From Octopus sinensis (lineage: Eukaryota): a stretch of DNA of 64,000 nucleotides. The position numbers and the translations under genes were made by a program. The number at the start of each line of letters is the position of its first letter. The first letter of the stretch is position 1. The stretch covers positions 18,228,001-18,292,000 of the forward strand of contig NC_043020.1 of assembly GCF_006345805.1 (NCBI RefSeq), read 5' to 3'. This document shows positions 7,495 to 55,644 of the stretch, piece after piece. A model generated the notes under the pieces. The model had not been told where the DNA came from, did no database searches, and saw only the letters and a program-made list of their open reading frames with translations.

Positions 7495-7500
<6 letters not shown>

Positions 7501-7791
7501 TAAGGGTAGAAATTGATATTAGTCAATTAAAACCAGTGGTCTAGCACATTAAAAGAATCCGAAGATTAAAATATTTATATATACCAATTAAGGACTGAAC
7601 ACGAAAAGGTGGACAGTCAACATGCTAGATATAGACGTCAAATCGCCATTCTCCACAAAGATTTTGTTCTCAAATAAAAATAAAATGAATTTTATTTTTA
7701 TTTGAGAACAAAATCTTTGTGAAGAATGGCGATTTGACGTCTATATCTAGCATGTTGACTGTCCACCTTTTCGTGTTCAGTCCTTAATTGG

Positions 7792-7799
<8 letters not shown>
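7495..7799. mobile_element. Tail-plus-palindrome element inserted in (TA)n (arms ~7576-7686 and ~7689-7799)
   Basis: ~110-bp arms with one visible mismatch and a 2-nt centre (ga); ~80-bp unduplicated tail on the left; (TA)n on both sides. Confidence 0.85.
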
Positions 7800-7832
<33 letters not shown>

Positions 7833-12284: not shown

Positions 12285-12628
12285 TATCTGTGTTGATATA
12301 CACTGTGTTTGTTTCAATTAATTTTTAAAATAATACAGAATTTAGTAAAATAATTCTGTCATTATCAAACTAGTTTGGAACACAAATTAGCATGAAATTG
12401 TGGTGAAAGATTTTAATTTAGATAACTTTAACCTTTTAGCATTCAGGTTACTCTGTCAAATGTAAGGCTTATTTAGACATACTGTTTTGAATTAATCATG
12501 CATTATCTCATAACTTTAAGATCTCAATGATGTGATTGTTTACATTTAGAATTAATTTTAGGATTTAAACAGGATATATCTGGCCAAAATATTCTTCCTG
12601 CTTTATGTTCAAACTGGCTAAATCCAGT

Positions 12629-12857
12629 TTAACCCTTTAGTGTTTAAACTGGCCAAATCCGGCCCAATATATTCTACATGTTTTATATTCAAACTGGCAA
12701 TATCTAGCTTCTCACACCTAACCTACAATGCCATTCTAAAAATAAACAATCACATCATTGAAACCTCAAAGCTGTAAGATAATCCAGGATTAATCCAAAA
12801 CAATTTGAGTGAAAAAGTATTACATTTAACAGAGTAATCTGAACACTAAAGGGTTAA
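12629..12857 (+). mobile_element. piggyBac-type MITE family E (~225 bp)
   Basis: TTAA|CCCTTTAGTGTT ... AACACTAAAGGG|TTAA. Further copies near 1670, 4870, 12430, 23935, 25209, 26928, 43050, 43350, 43896, 48715, 49098, 56720 and 56950. Confidence 0.9.
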
Positions 12858-13394
12858 AACAGAAAGATTGTATCTTAGAACCAGGAATAGTCTCAGATGG
12901 TTTGGTATCAAAAGAGCCAAGGTTCAAAAAGACGTGCATCATGGAGTTCCTTCACCCTTTAGTTTTTTAATATTTAAGCAATGGATATAAGTAATACTCA
13001 TCTCTCCCCTATCCCCTCTCTCTAAGCTCTACTCACAAGAGGAATGAAACACAAGACTACATTAATGATTCTCTAATTTATAGTAATGCAGCTGCTCACA
13101 AAGAAGGTGAGCTGTTTTTTTCTGCCATGTGGTATCAGGTGCCCTGTTTACAGTTAAGTGAACCAAGTGTTTTTGTCATTGACACATCAGTAACTCTCAA
13201 TCCATTTACAAAAACTTAAGCGTGACCTTACGTCAGTGTAATTAAATAAGCAATAAATAACAAACTTACTGAATATCCTAAGGAAATGTTGATTCCTTGC
13301 ATAAGCATGAGGGAAAATGTTCACTACAAAAGAAAGAAAAAAAATACAAGATGAAAATCATGTCATGAACTCAGCTTACTCTCTCCTCCTTTTT

Positions 13395-18649: not shown

Positions 18650-19032
18650 ATATATATATATATATACATAATATGAAGGGTGAAATTAATTAATTTGGAA
18701 AAATTATCAATTACACCAAGTAGTCTTCGGCATGTAAAAGCCTCATTCGAGGAAAATTTAAGTAATACTAAGCAATAAGGGTTTAGCAACGAGTTGCCTT
18801 ACCACATACCGAATTTAGAAATAGCAGTCAAAGGGTTATAGCTATTTCTTCTACTAAAAAGGGAGATCTCAGTAAAAAACAGCAATGCTGTTTTTACTGA
18901 GATCTCCCTTTTTAGTAGAAGAAATAGCTATAACCCTTTGACTGCTATTTCTAAATTCGGTATGTGGTAAGGCAACTCGTTGCTAAACCCTTATTGCTTA
19001 GTATATATATATACATATAATATATATATATA

Positions 19033-25787: not shown

Positions 25788-27141
25788 TGATACTGCTACA
25801 GTCTCTTGGGAGCGGGGGAGGGGGTGCTATGTTGCAATGCACCACCACCACCCCCGTCTATGTTGCAATGGTTTTCTGCAGTTAAGCATCAAGGATGTGA
25901 ATGGGATATATGTTGCTCATACTAATCCCAAAGGTATTTACCCTTACTAAAGAGAAATAAAATGGAGACAAAGTCACATCTGAATCTCTTATCAAAAGCT
26001 TACTGTTTTTACTATGTAATATTCAATCAGGAATACAACAGCCATTTAAAATGAGAAAAGAAGAAAGTGAGCTTGATTCTTACTTAATTGGGGAAAAAAA
26101 GCTTTATTCCAAAGAATGGCCATTAAATCATTAAAGAATTTGTTCCAATTACAGTTTTGAAATCAAAATCATTAAAAAAAAAAACAGAAAAGAAAAAGAA
26201 GTCTTCAGTTGTGTTTGGAACACCTTTGTGTTATATACTGAAATCAACTATAGCAAAAGGTTATGACATGAATGAGATTCAAATATAAAATTATTATATA
26301 AATTAAGTTTTATTATCAAGAAAGAACATGATCTTTTACAGTCTGACATTAAACCTGCTAACATGGATATAAATCTGATTTGAAAAAAAAAATAATAATT
26401 TCTGCTGCCTTGACAGAAATACCTGCTTGGATTGTTGTAGCCTCACACCAACCTGCAACTGCACAAAACCAGTGCATATAGCAGCTGTTATAGATAAAAT
26501 ATATACCAAGCAGATTTAGCCTACATTATTTTTATTTGTTCTTTTTTTTTCTTTTTGTAATTGACTGCAGTAATGTTAAATAATCCATTAGTCTCCAAAA
26601 CACTAAAAATGATTAAATTATGACCAACGGGCTTCTCGTAAATTTAAACAAACATAGAAAACATCAAAACTTCCTCTTAATTACTCAGAACTTATTGAGG
26701 ATTAGTAGTTTCCAACAGCATTTTTTGTAAGCCAGAAATTAGATACAAGTCTCACTTCAAAGTAGATGAGTAGTGCATTAGAAGGAATTCCACATTTAGC
26801 CACCAAAATACACCTACATACCTCAAAACTCATGAGAAATGGTTAAATTCCCAAACAAACTATGCCAGTAGAGTGAACATAACTTCACAAAACACTGAAG
26901 TGAAGCATGTCAGTTGCTCCGTAAGCTTAACCTTTCAGCATGTACACCTGTTGCACCTGATTTAAATATTCCACAGGTTTTATGTTTAAACTGACCAGAT
27001 TTGGCCTCTCACACCCATCCTACAATGTCGTTCAGAAAACGAAACATCACATCATCAAAATCTTGCATAAATAATTCAAAACAATTCTTTCATTCTTTTA
27101 CTTGTTTCAGTCATTTGACTGTGGCCATGCTGGAGCACCAC

Positions 27142-27341
27142 AAATAAGAGTCAAAATAACTCATGGCCACAATAAGCACCATCTTATTGACTGTCAAGGG
27201 AAGCAAGCTCCTTAAGCACCAGGCAGGGAACTTGCCTTCCTTGTCAGTCAACAAGATGGTGCTTATTGTGGATAGGAGTTGTTTTCACTCTTATTTTTAG
27301 CAATACTGGTATTGAATAGCACTCTCAGTTGCTTTAGTACT
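27142..27341. mobile_element. Diverged palindrome (27142-27296) with tail on the right
   Basis: ccacaataagcaccatcttattgactgtcaagg / ccttgtcagtcaacaagatggtgcttattgtgg; the tail resembles that of 46289-46617. Confidence 0.75.
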
Positions 27342-27555
27342 CTCTCTTTTACTCTTTTACCTGTTTCAGTCATTTGACTGCGGCCATGCTGAAGCACCGC
27401 CTTTAATCGAGCAACTCAACCCCAGGACTTATTCTTTGCAAGCCCAGTACTTATTCTATCGGTCTCGTTTTGCCAAACCGTTAAGTGACGGGGACGTAAA
27501 CACACCAGCATCAGTTGTCAAGCAATGCTAGGGGGATAAACACAGACACACACAT

Positions 27556-42940: not shown

Positions 42941-43664
42941 CAATGGTTCTCATCCATTTTTCACCTATGGACTCCTTTGATTATAATTTTATTCTGGTGG
43001 ACCTCCATATTCATTCAATGTTTAACACTCTAGCTTTCATATTACTCTAACGAATGTAATACTTCTTTATTCACATTGTTTTGAACTAATCATGCATTAT
43101 CTCATAGTTTGGAGATTTTGATATGATTGCTTGATTTTACAAAGACATTGTAGGGAAGGCGAGAGAGGCTGGATTTGGCCAGTTTGAACATAAAAAAACA
43201 TAGAATGTTTTGGCTGGATATGGCCAGAGCTCTCTGAGAGAACATGTTTCAGTGGTCAGAAACGCATTAAACTATGTAAAGCATTAGAGAAAGAAATAGC
43301 TGTCTCTTGCAATAAATATAACTAAAGAAAAAAACTTTTCATGTACCCATTAACCCATTAGCATTTAAGCAGGTCATATCCAGCCAAATTACTCATGTTT
43401 TACGCTCAACTGGCCAGATCTGATCTCTCCTGTCTACCCTATAATGTCATTCTAAAAATATTCACATTAAAATCTCAAAGCTACTAGATAATGCTTGATT
43501 AATTCAATATGAATTGATAAGTATTACATTTGACAGAAAGAATAATCTGAATATTAAAGGGTTAAATACTACTGCGGATCCCAAATTTACTACTGTTTGC
43601 ATGGGTCCCCCAAAATGCTATGTGGATCCCCAGAGATCATATGGACCCTGGTTGAGTACCAGTG
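42941..43664 (-). mobile_element. hAT-type MITE containing two family-E piggyBac-type MITEs
   Basis: TIRs caatggttctcatcc / ggttgagtaccagtg; 8-bp TSD atggagtt / atgtagtt; E copies at ~43050-43230 (-) and ~43350-43565 (+). Confidence 0.75.
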
Positions 43665-46129: not shown

Positions 46130-46873
46130 GCACAGGTGTGGCCATGTGGAAGGAAGCTTGCTTCCCAACCATATAATTCCAGGTTCAGTCCCACTGCATG
46201 TCACCTTGGGCAAGTGTCTTCTATTATAGACTCAGGCTGACCAAGTGGATTTGGTAGACGGAAACTGAAAGAAGCCCCACATATATATCTCAAAGAGCGA
46301 CATTCAGTAACAATTCTTTAAAGTAAAAGCTGACTGCCAACATAATATGGCTGTCCTGGAACAGACATTGTTACTGTTCATCAGCCCCAAGAAACATCGT
46401 TTCTAGCTGGCTATACAACACACTATCTGTGTCCTTATATTTTCGAACAGGGAATTCAGCATTTCCACCTAGCATGGGGATGCTGAATTCCCTGTTTGAA
46501 AATATAAGGACACTGTGTTGTATAGCCAGCTAGAAATGATGTTTCTTGGGGCTAATGAACAGTAACAATGTCCGTTCCAGGACAACCATATTATGTTGGC
46601 AATTAGCTTCTACCTTATATATATATGTATTTGTGTATATATTTATGTGTTTGTCTTTGTGCCTGTGTTTATCTCCCCATCACCACTTGACAACCAGTGC
46701 TGGTGTAGTTAGGTTCCCATAACTTAGTGATTCGTCAAAAGGGTATGATAGAATAAGTATTAGACTTCAGAAATAAATCCTGGGGCTGATTTGTTCGACT
46801 AAAAAAACCCTTCAAGGCAGTGCGCCAGCATGGCTGCAGTCAAATGACTGAAACAAGTAAAAGAATAAAAGAA
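46128..46873 (+). mobile_element. SINE family A with a palindromic insert in its internal (TA)n
   Basis: Head 46128-46280 and tail 46620-46873 flank the insert. Confidence 0.85.
46289..46617. mobile_element. Tail-plus-palindrome element in (TA)n (arms ~46319-46467 and ~46475-46617)
   Basis: ~145-bp arms with scattered transitions and one short indel; ~30-bp unduplicated tail on the left. Confidence 0.85.
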
Positions 46874-49800
46874 TACACACACAGACACATATACAACAGG
46901 CTTCTTTCAGTTTCAGTTTACCAAATCCACTCACAAGGCTTTGGTTGATCTGGAGCTAAAATAGAAGACACTTGCCCAAGGTGTCACGCAGTGGAACCGA
47001 ACTCAAGACCATGTGGTTGGGAAGCAATAAATCTTCTAATTTCCTACCAAGTCCAGAAATAAAATTCTGTCATGAATAAAATTTCAAATCACAATAGAGG
47101 CCTACATTCAACTGTTATATAACAAATAATAGATTAACTAGGGATGGCAGAACTGACAGACTTAAGATTAATGGAGACTCCTTAAAGGTCATCTGGTTTA
47201 AATCTTTACATAGTATACTGTGTTTTTGCCTCTGGGGAAGTTATACTACCCTACTCAGTCAACCTAAACAAGTACTATTCATCATTTCACAGTTCAATGA
47301 ACTGTATTAGGAAAAGCATTCAAACATAAAACACCTGTCTCCAACAAGTTGGATTCATGTCCTTACTTTTACAACCATCAGTCAAGAGCAGAAACACTCT
47401 TAACCCTTCCACTAACACACACACACAAAAAAAAATGAAAAAAATCATGGTCATATGACTAGTAATTACATGATCCTGGGTTCAATACTTATACAGCACA
47501 GGATGGGCCAAGGTTCTATCAATGAAATTTGTGAGACAGAATTTAGAATAAAAGTCAGTGTGTGTGTATCTTTCATCTTTTGCTTATGACATTCATTAGA
47601 CTGTGGCCATACTGGGGCACCACCTTAGAGAATTTTTAGTGGAACGAATCGACCCTAGTACTTATTTTTTTTTTAAGCCAGGCACTTATTCAATCAATCG
47701 ATTTTGCTGAAATGCTAATTTACAGGCACGTAAATACACCAATACTGGTTGTTAAGTGGTGGTGGTGGTGGTGGACAAACACAGGCACACACACACATAT
47801 TCATTTTGTGTCAATTTTTTCATGTGCACATAGGTTAGAAAACTTATTATCAAGGCATTATTTTACATTCAGATACTGTTCCACTTGGTAACACGTCCCC
47901 ATTTTGCAAGTAAGGGGTCTCTTATTTCACACATCTTCAAAGACACAAAGCAAGTTCTCAATTTGTTGACAGAACGAACAATACCACCAGGTATAACATT
48001 TGTGCCCCAGAAAAGTTAGAACACAAATGCAAATAAGCACAGATACGCACACACACACACATATTGGTATATGTGTGTGTGTGTGTGATGTACTTCTTTC
48101 AGTTTCCATCTACCATATTCATTCACAAGGCTTTGGTTAGTCCGGGGCTATAAGACACCACACAGTGACACCGAACCCCAAAACCATGTGGTTGAGATGC
48201 AAACTTCTTAACCACACAACCATGTCTGCACCAATCTATGACTTTCAGGGGTTTTGACATCCTGTGCTTTGAAGGAGGCATCTCCACTGTGCAAAACTGC
48301 AGCCTACTGGTGAACAAGCAAAGTACATACATTGAGTATATGTGGTCAATACACACACACACACATTGGCAAGAACACTGATAAACAAGTGCAATCAAAG
48401 AAAAATACCTTGTGGTATTGTTCAAGGCTGTTAGTAATACATTTAAAGCAATTCGACTTGGAAACTGAAATCAGGTTACAGACTCAGATCACCAGGAGTT
48501 ACTACAGCCACCACTACCACCACTGTAGCAACAACATGTACTTATCAATACTTTATCAATGACACTACTTATATCAAACAGTATCAGATTTATTTTGTGT
48601 GTTCTACTGTGTTTACTAATGACAAAGTTGCGTGACTTAGTTTTCAAATCCGAGTGTAAGCCCTTCCACAGGTAAAGCTTGGCAATGAAAAGGTTTGAGC
48701 TTGCTGAATTTCCCTAGCTCTTTAGTGTTTAAACTGGCCATATCTGGCCAAAATATTGTACCTGTTTTATGTTCAGACTAGTCAGATATGGTCATTCATA
48801 GCTACCTTATTGTGTCGTTTTAAAAATAAGCAATCACATCACTGAAATCTCAAAGCCATGAAATGATGCAGGATTAATTTTACATGGTGTGAATACATAA
48901 GCTTTACATTTGACAGAATAATCTGAATGCTAAAGGGCTAGATATACCAACCACATGAAAACAAAACCTACAATGGACTCATTTTGTTTCAAAGCAACAT
49001 TTTAACTGGGTATATAGTGTCTGCGCTAACACCAATAACTAATGTTTTCCATTCACACAAAGCCAGATATTCGTAAGGGGTGTACATATTTAGTTGTTAA
49101 ACCCTTTAAGCATTTAAACTGACCACATCTGGCACAAATATTTTGCCTATTTTATGTTCAAACTGACCAGATCTGGCCTCTCACACCTACTCTACAAATG
49201 TCATTCTAAAAATAAAAGCTCACGTCATTGAAATCTCGAAGCTATGAGATAATACATGATTAATTCAAAAAGTAATGTGAATAAACAAGCATTACATTTG
49301 ACTGAGTAATCTGAATACTAAAGGATTAAATGAGGCTAGAAATTATTCTATCAAAAGATGAGGTTGGGTGGACTGGGTCCCCAATGAGATCTGAACTCGG
49401 TAGAGAAGTAGCAACTGAAGTGCAAGGCATTCAATTCCTCAACCTCACCACCATCATCATCAACATCCATTCTTCCAGAGGTTGGATGAAGCTTGATTGG
49501 TGCTTGTCCCGTCACCAACCCTCACCTGTTTCCAAGTAAGGTATTATCACTCTATGGCAAGATATGTTTTCATGGAACAATGGAAATAAAGAACAGTGTT
49601 GTATGACACTGGGATTCATTTACAGCTACCATTTGATGTCAAGATAAGGAGACACCAAATGATATTTTGTTTCGGTCATCTGACTGTGGCCAAGAGCTTT
49701 TTTTTTTTAAAGCTTAGTACTTATTTTATTGGTCTCTTTTGCTGAACTGCTAAGTTACAGGGACCATAAATACACCAACATTGGTGTTGTCCAACAGTAG

Positions 49801-55383: not shown

Positions 55384-55644
55384 CTATTTTTAATTAGCAG
55401 TAACTTACAAATGTGACTTGAAGGCCGAGGGCTTTGTGCCTGGTACTTAACCATACTAACTTCAAATCTAAGGGTTTGTTTCTTTTACAGAACATTTAAT
55501 GAAAGATTTGAACATTCTAGAAAGAATGCTACATTATCACTGCATAAGAAACAAACCCTCAGATTTGAAGTCAGTTTCATAAGTGTCAGACACAAAACTC
55601 TTGACCCTCAAGCCACTTTTGTAACTTTCAGCAGTTAAAAATAG
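55384..55644. repeat. Old fold-back: ~100-bp inverted arms with a ~55-bp spacer
   Basis: acttcaaatctaagggtttgtttctt / aagaaacaaaccctcagatttgaagt; ctatttttaa / ttaaaaatag. Confidence 0.75.

Follow-up and report, generated by a model that had tools for sequence, protein, structure and literature searches.

A head-to-head, 5'-truncated copy of a non-coding repeat with a predicted hammerhead motif in Octopus sinensis, probably inserted by PLE proteins

Introduction

In the available parts of the literature, insertions of Penelope-like elements (PLEs) are described as comprising a head-to-head inverted copy truncated at its 5' end, partial tandems, an optional tail at one end, a small palindrome at the junction and AT-rich or microsatellite targets (PMC3846280; PMC8557442). 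The element Pen2a of Adineta vaga has an inverted pLTR and a 31-bp tail in head-to-head arrangement (PMC3846280), and endonuclease-bearing PLEs have a one-sided tail of 30-40 bp and a bias towards microsatellites; a CX4CxxC linker, tied to microsatellite targeting, characterises the Neptune and Nematis PLEs (PMC8557442, in the sections available). The tail spans the interval from one RT start site to the other and, in the accessible portion of the report, is described as needed for endonuclease recognition (PMC11167929). A hammerhead variant with a U3-A8 core has been described for PLEs of Schistosoma (PMC4209133, text available in part). Tandem hammerhead repeats of animals, the non-LTR retrozymes, are regarded as PLE derivatives; as far as the available text of the two sources goes, they have a non-coding unit of about 300-350 nt with a type I hammerhead and a palindromic helix III, and are proposed to be non-autonomous derivatives of PLE pLTRs (PMC7229834; bioRxiv 10.64898/2026.07.22.740005).

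The DNA analysed here, hereafter called the window, is a stretch of 64,000 nucleotides from Octopus sinensis (contig NC_043020.1, positions 18,228,001 to 18,292,000). The segment at window positions 46289..46617 is a copy of a genome-wide, non-coding 349-nt hammerhead unit, hereafter called family A, consisting of two 5'-truncated pieces set head to head and very probably inserted in trans by the RT and GIY-YIG endonuclease of a PLE. Head-to-head orientation, a tail at one end, partial tandems, a type I hammerhead in the repeat and an AT/microsatellite target, all of them features of PLE-type insertions, were found in family A, as was the small palindrome at the junction. Compared with the available descriptions of PLE insertions, family A as sampled has no ORF, its tail is about 47 nt long where the published tails are 30-40 nt, and there is no clear target-site duplication at 46289..46617 (PMC3846280; PMC8557442). 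The layout of the copy is already described for PLE insertions and is ordinary in kind.

With the retrozymes, family A shares a non-coding unit in the range of 150-400 nt with a type I hammerhead and a palindromic helix III. It differs from them in occurring as dispersed truncated stubs and partial tandems and in its U3-A8 core (PMC7229834; bioRxiv 10.64898/2026.07.22.740005, both as partly available). The main text of the retrozyme preprint, in the part accessible, contains neither 'tail' nor 'palindrom' (bioRxiv 10.64898/2026.07.22.740005). The single locus, a dead repeat stub within a SINE, is of little weight. Taken as a class, the stubs show short non-coding hammerhead units bearing the entire signature of PLE insertion, in support of the recent proposal that PLE proteins mobilise the retrozymes of animals.

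Anatomy of the copy and its insertion site

The features of the locus, in window positions, are as follows:

46130..46280, plus strand: 5' part of the host SINE-like repeat (23 hits in the window; other copies have it in line with the 3' part)
46281..46288, no strand: left remnant of the internal TA run of the SINE, the target (from the sequence, and from the TA/TG run in other SINE copies)
46289..46318, minus strand: tail, unit positions 319 to about 349, at the 3' end of the minus-strand arm (family comparison)
46319..46467, minus strand: tailed arm, unit positions about 163-318, running outward on the minus strand (family majority sequence)
46468..46474, no strand: 7-nt centre with the self-complementary CTAG, the arms overlapping by about 5 nt (spanned by the X5 and X9 contigs)
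46475..46617, plus strand: untailed inverted arm, unit positions about 164-318, ending at the short end of the family (83 % identity to the majority sequence)
46618..46875, plus strand: remainder of the TA/TG run, followed by the 3' part of the host SINE-like repeat (20 hits in the window)

The original prediction of a tail plus a palindrome was confirmed, with an unpaired tail of 30 nt, arms of 149 and 143 nt and a centre of 7 nt. The arms are identical in 132 of 143 aligned columns (92 %) and differ in addition by one 6-nt indel, and the fold had a z of -28, none of 100 shuffles being equally good. The segment 46282-46473 was 88 % identical to the family A majority sequence. Insertion within the TA run of a SINE, also claimed beforehand, agrees with the flanks, which are the 5' and 3' parts of a SINE-like repeat; in other copies in the window these two parts are collinear, with a TA/TG run at the insertion spot. 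The 5' part of this repeat has a head which, by resemblance, is presumably of the tRNA type. A target-site duplication of up to 8 bp would be indistinguishable from the TA run at 46281..46288.

The tail at 46289..46318 corresponds to the first approximately 30 nt of the family A tail of about 47 nt, the last approximately 15 nt being missing. Such an end is atypical, none of 24 tailed hits of a family A pattern stopping there, and could reflect either the use of a minor start site or a deletion at a later time. The short end of the 46475..46617 arm is common to many family A copies. The copy begins at unit position 163-164, the predicted cleavage site (position 145) being 18 nt upstream, and thus has no ribozyme; it is likely a dead stub without function of its own.

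Extent and layout of repeat family A

Searching the genome for family A gave 106 matches from the best 40 of 2189 candidates, and a 25-nt family A pattern had 80 exact hits, its reversed control having none. The pattern count, together with an identity of about 89 %, leads to an estimate of about one to two thousand family A segments. The copies were 85-93 % identical to the majority sequence, which contained no open reading frame in any frame, and more distant relatives of the unit were found at 62-70 % identity (L131, L132 and L133). The unit has a period of 349 nt and forms partial direct tandems in longer copies (e.g. L010, L013, L019, L020 and L079); two complete units in a row were not seen among the loci examined, a small sample of best hits. 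Family A was not found described in the literature searched, and may already be catalogued in Repbase or Dfam.

Layout was assessed in 51 distinct loci, i.e. 60 fetched loci less nine duplicates. The two arms were head to head in 31 loci and tail to tail in none, and the other 20 had a single orientation, with no inverted arm. Two 3' ends prevail, near unit positions 318 and 362-372 and about 47 nt apart: among 30 hits of a pattern ending at position 318, which include two duplicates and two arms of one locus, 24 pass through the tail to at least position 361 and six stop at 318-319. The 29 simple two-arm loci include seven with an arm cut short, leaving 22 with both ends at a defined site, and 20 of these 22 have one tailed and one short end. 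The first searches returned the best hits to queries containing the tail and were biased towards tailed copies; one tailed and one short end were likewise present in all eight informative loci retrieved with a pattern that lies outside the tail.

The 5' ends of family A copies are scattered over unit positions 18-295 and the centres of the loci vary from position 18 to 279. With centres this variable and no inverted arm in 20 of 51 loci, the palindrome is no fixed part of the family A element but arises upon insertion. Runs of TA or TAA occurred within 30 nt of 39 of the 82 outward ends, as against 11.6 % of 2040 background 30-mers.

Hammerhead motif

The family A unit carries, upstream of where the 46289..46617 copy starts, a minimal type I hammerhead with the order stem I, TTGATAA core, stem II, GAAA, palindromic 4-mer (mostly CTAG) and TC, which is a ribozyme motif predicted from sequence. 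In 45 family A copies, U3-A8 was present in 34, an intact core in 27, at least four of the five stem I pairs in 40 and a palindromic 4-mer at helix III in 29, while 14 copies had all features. Stems I and II and the palindrome of helix III have changed in related families with pairing kept. Within family A the stems decay with almost no compensatory change, and scanning 11 loci against Rfam at E<=1 gave no hammerhead, the only hits being microsatellite-driven miRNA/snoRNA matches below the gathering score; support for the hammerhead is comparative, coming from the 62-70 % relatives and from other families.

The minimal hammerhead of Cercyon from Schistosoma has the same U3-A8 core covariation as family A, and motifs lying close together on opposite strands are likewise noted in the available part of that paper. 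Compared with Cercyon, helix II of family A is shorter (about 4 bp) and helix III is a 4-nt palindrome (PMC4209133). Among the three relatives L131, L132 and L133, one combines a 6-nt palindrome with the canonical C3-G8 core; both core types thus occur within one lineage.

Formation of the inverted arm

The Poseidon element PAc of Anolis has two RT start sites that define its tail, comparable to the two 3' ends of family A; AT-rich DNA is cleaved, both strands are cut and extended, and synthesis starts in a stem-loop (PMC11167929, as partly available). Target-primed reverse transcription with two start sites can be supposed for family A, as has been shown in vitro for this element (PMC11167929). 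PAc differs in being autonomous and of the Poseidon type, the coding PLEs seen in the present genome having a Neptune/Nematis-type, Zn-finger-like linker.

In the proposed sequence of events, tandem family A copies would be transcribed and a Neptune-like PLE protein would bind the 3' region and nick the TA run. Reverse transcription from the distal site would produce the tailed arm, and the other DNA end would receive a second copy which, ending at the proximal site, would have no tail. Both pieces would stop early and be joined over a few complementary bases, in this case around CTAG. This origin of the inverted arm from two primings, one per DNA end, is favoured over fold-back, with confidence that is little better than even.

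Fold-back of a single cDNA would involve the same class of element and has a substantial, though less than even, chance of being correct. Here the cDNA begun from the tail would stall, fold back on a short self-complementary site and copy itself, after which the endonuclease would resolve the hairpin at the short end. Self-priming is the reading given in the accessible Discussion of PMC3846280, and resolution of the tail by the endonuclease is suggested in the available text of PMC8557442. The junction of the 46289..46617 copy, nearly symmetric (163/164) around CTAG, would be expected from such a process, as would those of the four of eight head-to-head loci that are symmetric within 1 nt in the young family of the element at window position 7495. 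However, in 10 of the 20 one-tailed family A loci the untailed arm exceeds the tailed arm in the 5' direction by 10 nt or more (the tailed arm being further 5' in six, and the two lying within 10 nt in four), which is impossible for a folded tailed cDNA, and three of the eight loci of the young 7495 family are asymmetric too. Later deletions at the hairpin centre could yield this asymmetry.

Pairing of a long with a short end was seen not only in the 20 of 22 family A loci but also in 6 of 6 loci of the 7495 family and 7 of 8 loci of the family of the element at window position 18675. It is conceivable, but rather unlikely, that the ends are coupled, one always made from the distal and the other from the proximal RT start; as either arm may be the one extending further 5', a PLE dimer would then prime both DNA ends independently at different, assigned sites, contrary to self-priming. 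If this were true, thousands of short-family stubs would constitute a dataset for the unsolved second-strand step of PLEs. The term 'twin priming' was not found in the PLE-focused papers searched. The junction and end statistics of the stubs could separate the two models of how the inverted copy of PLEs is formed, and many long hairpins in the genome appear as retroelement footprints, not regulatory devices.

Coding PLEs and the search for a partner

Matches to GIY-YIG are numerous in the genome (5029 candidates), some of them within frames of 775-883 amino acids. Both of the long frames that were scanned had GIY-YIG above and RVT_1 just below the cut-off and carried the CX4CxxC linker, and relatives of these frames have a U3-A8 hammerhead and a 4-nt palindrome downstream. 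Of 30 GIY-YIG loci, nine had a downstream hammerhead-like motif combining the U3-A8 core with a 4-nt palindrome, none of them sharing family A sequence. No coding element with the family A end was present among these 30 loci and 13 extended stretches, nor was an ORF with RT and GIY-YIG joined to the family A unit as pLTR in the 51 family loci and 30 pattern loci; coding remnants of PLEs lay within 1.5 kb of two of the 51 family loci and two of the 30 pattern loci, none attached to the unit in the manner of a pLTR. ORFs with RT and GIY-YIG do occur elsewhere in the genome, associated with other pLTRs. As no coding PLE with family A sequence was found, we infer the partner by kind. Family A is filed as a non-autonomous PLE-type family and not as an autonomous PLE. 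Family A-like matches near GIY-YIG sequences (L123/L131, L117/L132 and L107/L133) were rejected as candidates, being 62-70 % relatives that look like separate insertions.

The copy could instead represent the 3' end of what was a full-length coding PLE having the family A unit as its pLTR, since short 5'-truncated stubs look alike from either origin, and the searches scored the best 40 candidates each and covered only part of the 5029 GIY-YIG candidates. Such a source is nevertheless improbable: copies that reach the unit start (18-19) and pass beyond it continue into an inverted arm or into a preceding unit's tail, never into coding DNA, and the majority sequence has no open frame.

Young coding PLEs were also observed (L125, L126 and L129; G000 C1, C19), in which the RT/GIY-YIG frame of 781 codons is overlapped by an upstream frame reaching 479 codons; a U3-A8 hammerhead lies only about 65 nt from the 3' end of these elements. 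A remnant of a divergent, GC-richer PLE with 26-35 % identity to the others (L156, oriented, 1-1100) suggests a further PLE clade in the genome.

Other class assignments and authenticity of the hairpin

The long inverted arms, TA flanks and small conserved tail stem-loop of family A would also suit an element moving at the DNA level, either a MITE or foldback element with long TIRs or a Helitron/HUH derivative in which the tail stem-loop serves as the 3' hairpin. The centres, however, range over unit positions 18 to 279, 20 of 51 loci lack an inverted arm, partial tandems are direct, the ends are asymmetric and a hammerhead motif is present; the variable centres and the ribozyme motif largely refute this assignment, which is very improbable. 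The fixed symmetric terminal inverted repeats of a MITE or foldback element were not found, the ends being asymmetric and the centres shifting. Helitrons and Helentrons have a fixed 5' end, a 3' hairpin and a conserved terminus; the 5' ends of family A are scattered (18-295) and there are two alternative 3' ends, and a Helitron/Helentron derivative was likewise rejected.

Four runs were compared at the locus, and among the contig pieces listed the centre was spanned by contigs of two of them. The X5 contig covers 46433-46543 with one difference. The X9 contig, which carries another organism label, covers 46428-46613 with 11 differences and three gaps, a divergence across the centre close to the 19/432 of the unique flank. 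The junction of the 46289..46617 copy is not repeated in any other of the 29 two-arm loci, so that the X9 contig is less likely to come from a paralogue. The hairpin is likely older than the split from the X9 organism. A joint that skips 46277-46686 in all four runs was considered as an empty site and rejected, as it likely derives from other SINE copies.

The divergence of the arms and the X5 and X9 contigs crossing the centre indicate that the hairpin is real, and bear out the earlier view that the palindrome is old and unlikely to be an artefact of assembly. That view had pointed to CpG-type transitions among the arm differences, which are indeed present but account for only 3 of 11; all 11 are transitions, giving a ratio of transitions to transversions of 11:0 in this one selected case compared with 274:114 family-wide. 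Palindromes may arise during assembly, and the left SINE-to-tail junction was not bridged among the pieces listed, but with arms differing at 11 sites and by a 6-nt indel, a centre spanned in two other runs and the same layout with different centres at 31 of 51 family loci, the chance that the hairpin arose as an artefact of assembly or by a single local inversion of a repeat is negligible.

Conservation of the tail and comparison with other families

The original prediction aligned the tail at 46289 with the reverse-complement tail of the element at 27142-27341. The 21-nt alignment exists, with 14 of 21 positions identical and p = 0.010 in 1000 dinucleotide shuffles as one of six window-tail pairs tried; of 2482 other 45-mers of the window, 25 score as well as the 27341(rc) match, and at the family level p = 0.086. 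The element at 27142-27341 is a member of another hammerhead family, family B, in which 15 of 27 loci have a full tail of about 50 nt, one has a partial tail, ten stop at the short end and one stops earlier. The copy of family B in the window stops at the short end, so that the supposed tail at 27297-27341 is arm sequence. The true tails of families A and B are unrelated (p = 0.52), and homology of their tails was rejected. A single tail sequence common to the elements at 7495, 18675, 27341 and 46289 does not hold, the family A tail giving p = 0.97 with that of the 7495 element and p = 0.61 with that of the 18675 element in addition to the value for family B. The tails of the 7495 and 18675 elements are alike (p = 0.002) and are the sole resembling pair. 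The four tail-plus-palindrome families of the window share architecture, not tail sequence. The whole units of families A and B align roughly collinearly, although not significantly (p = 0.12, with an imperfect 3' end of the B reference), and their post-ribozyme arms showed no significant similarity (p = 0.19).

Within its own lineage, the family A tail is kept in all three distant relatives (p = 0.014, 0.002 and 0.014), and it forms a small stem-loop with slight covariation (three of seven pairs; covariation term about zero). The proposal that the tail is a conserved cis-acting end thus fits the PLE literature within a lineage but not across the families of the window, and a cis-acting role of the family A tail would, by analogy, agree with published PLEs.

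The family B stub at 27142-27341 (window 27086-27400) is without the family tail and lies between two similar pieces of a SINE 3' end of about 55 nt, an arrangement like a long duplication or a template switch. At another locus (L036:1440-3100), a decayed PLE RT fragment in sense orientation is located just upstream of tandem family B units, which may connect family B with a coding element or be the result of chance nesting.

Other palindromic and repeat elements in the window

The element at 7495-7804 belongs to a young family with a tandem unit of about 506 nt and 98-100 % identity between 40 scored copies, having a canonical C3-G8 hammerhead motif and a one-sided tail of about 85-90 nt; no coding partner was found in 20 loci. 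Another young family, that of the element at 18675-19004, was retrieved by a search with its arm and has a tandem unit of about 600 nt and the same head-to-head layout; two descriptors gave no hammerhead in this unit.

An older, imperfect palindrome lies at 55384-55644, with 73 % identity between its arms; by blastn it is related to neither family A nor family B. The segments 12427-12858 and 43021-43566 are related to each other and MITE-like, with imperfect terminal inverted repeats starting with TTTAAC. The segment 2047-2910 is a complex inverted and direct repeat of a unit of about 340 nt.
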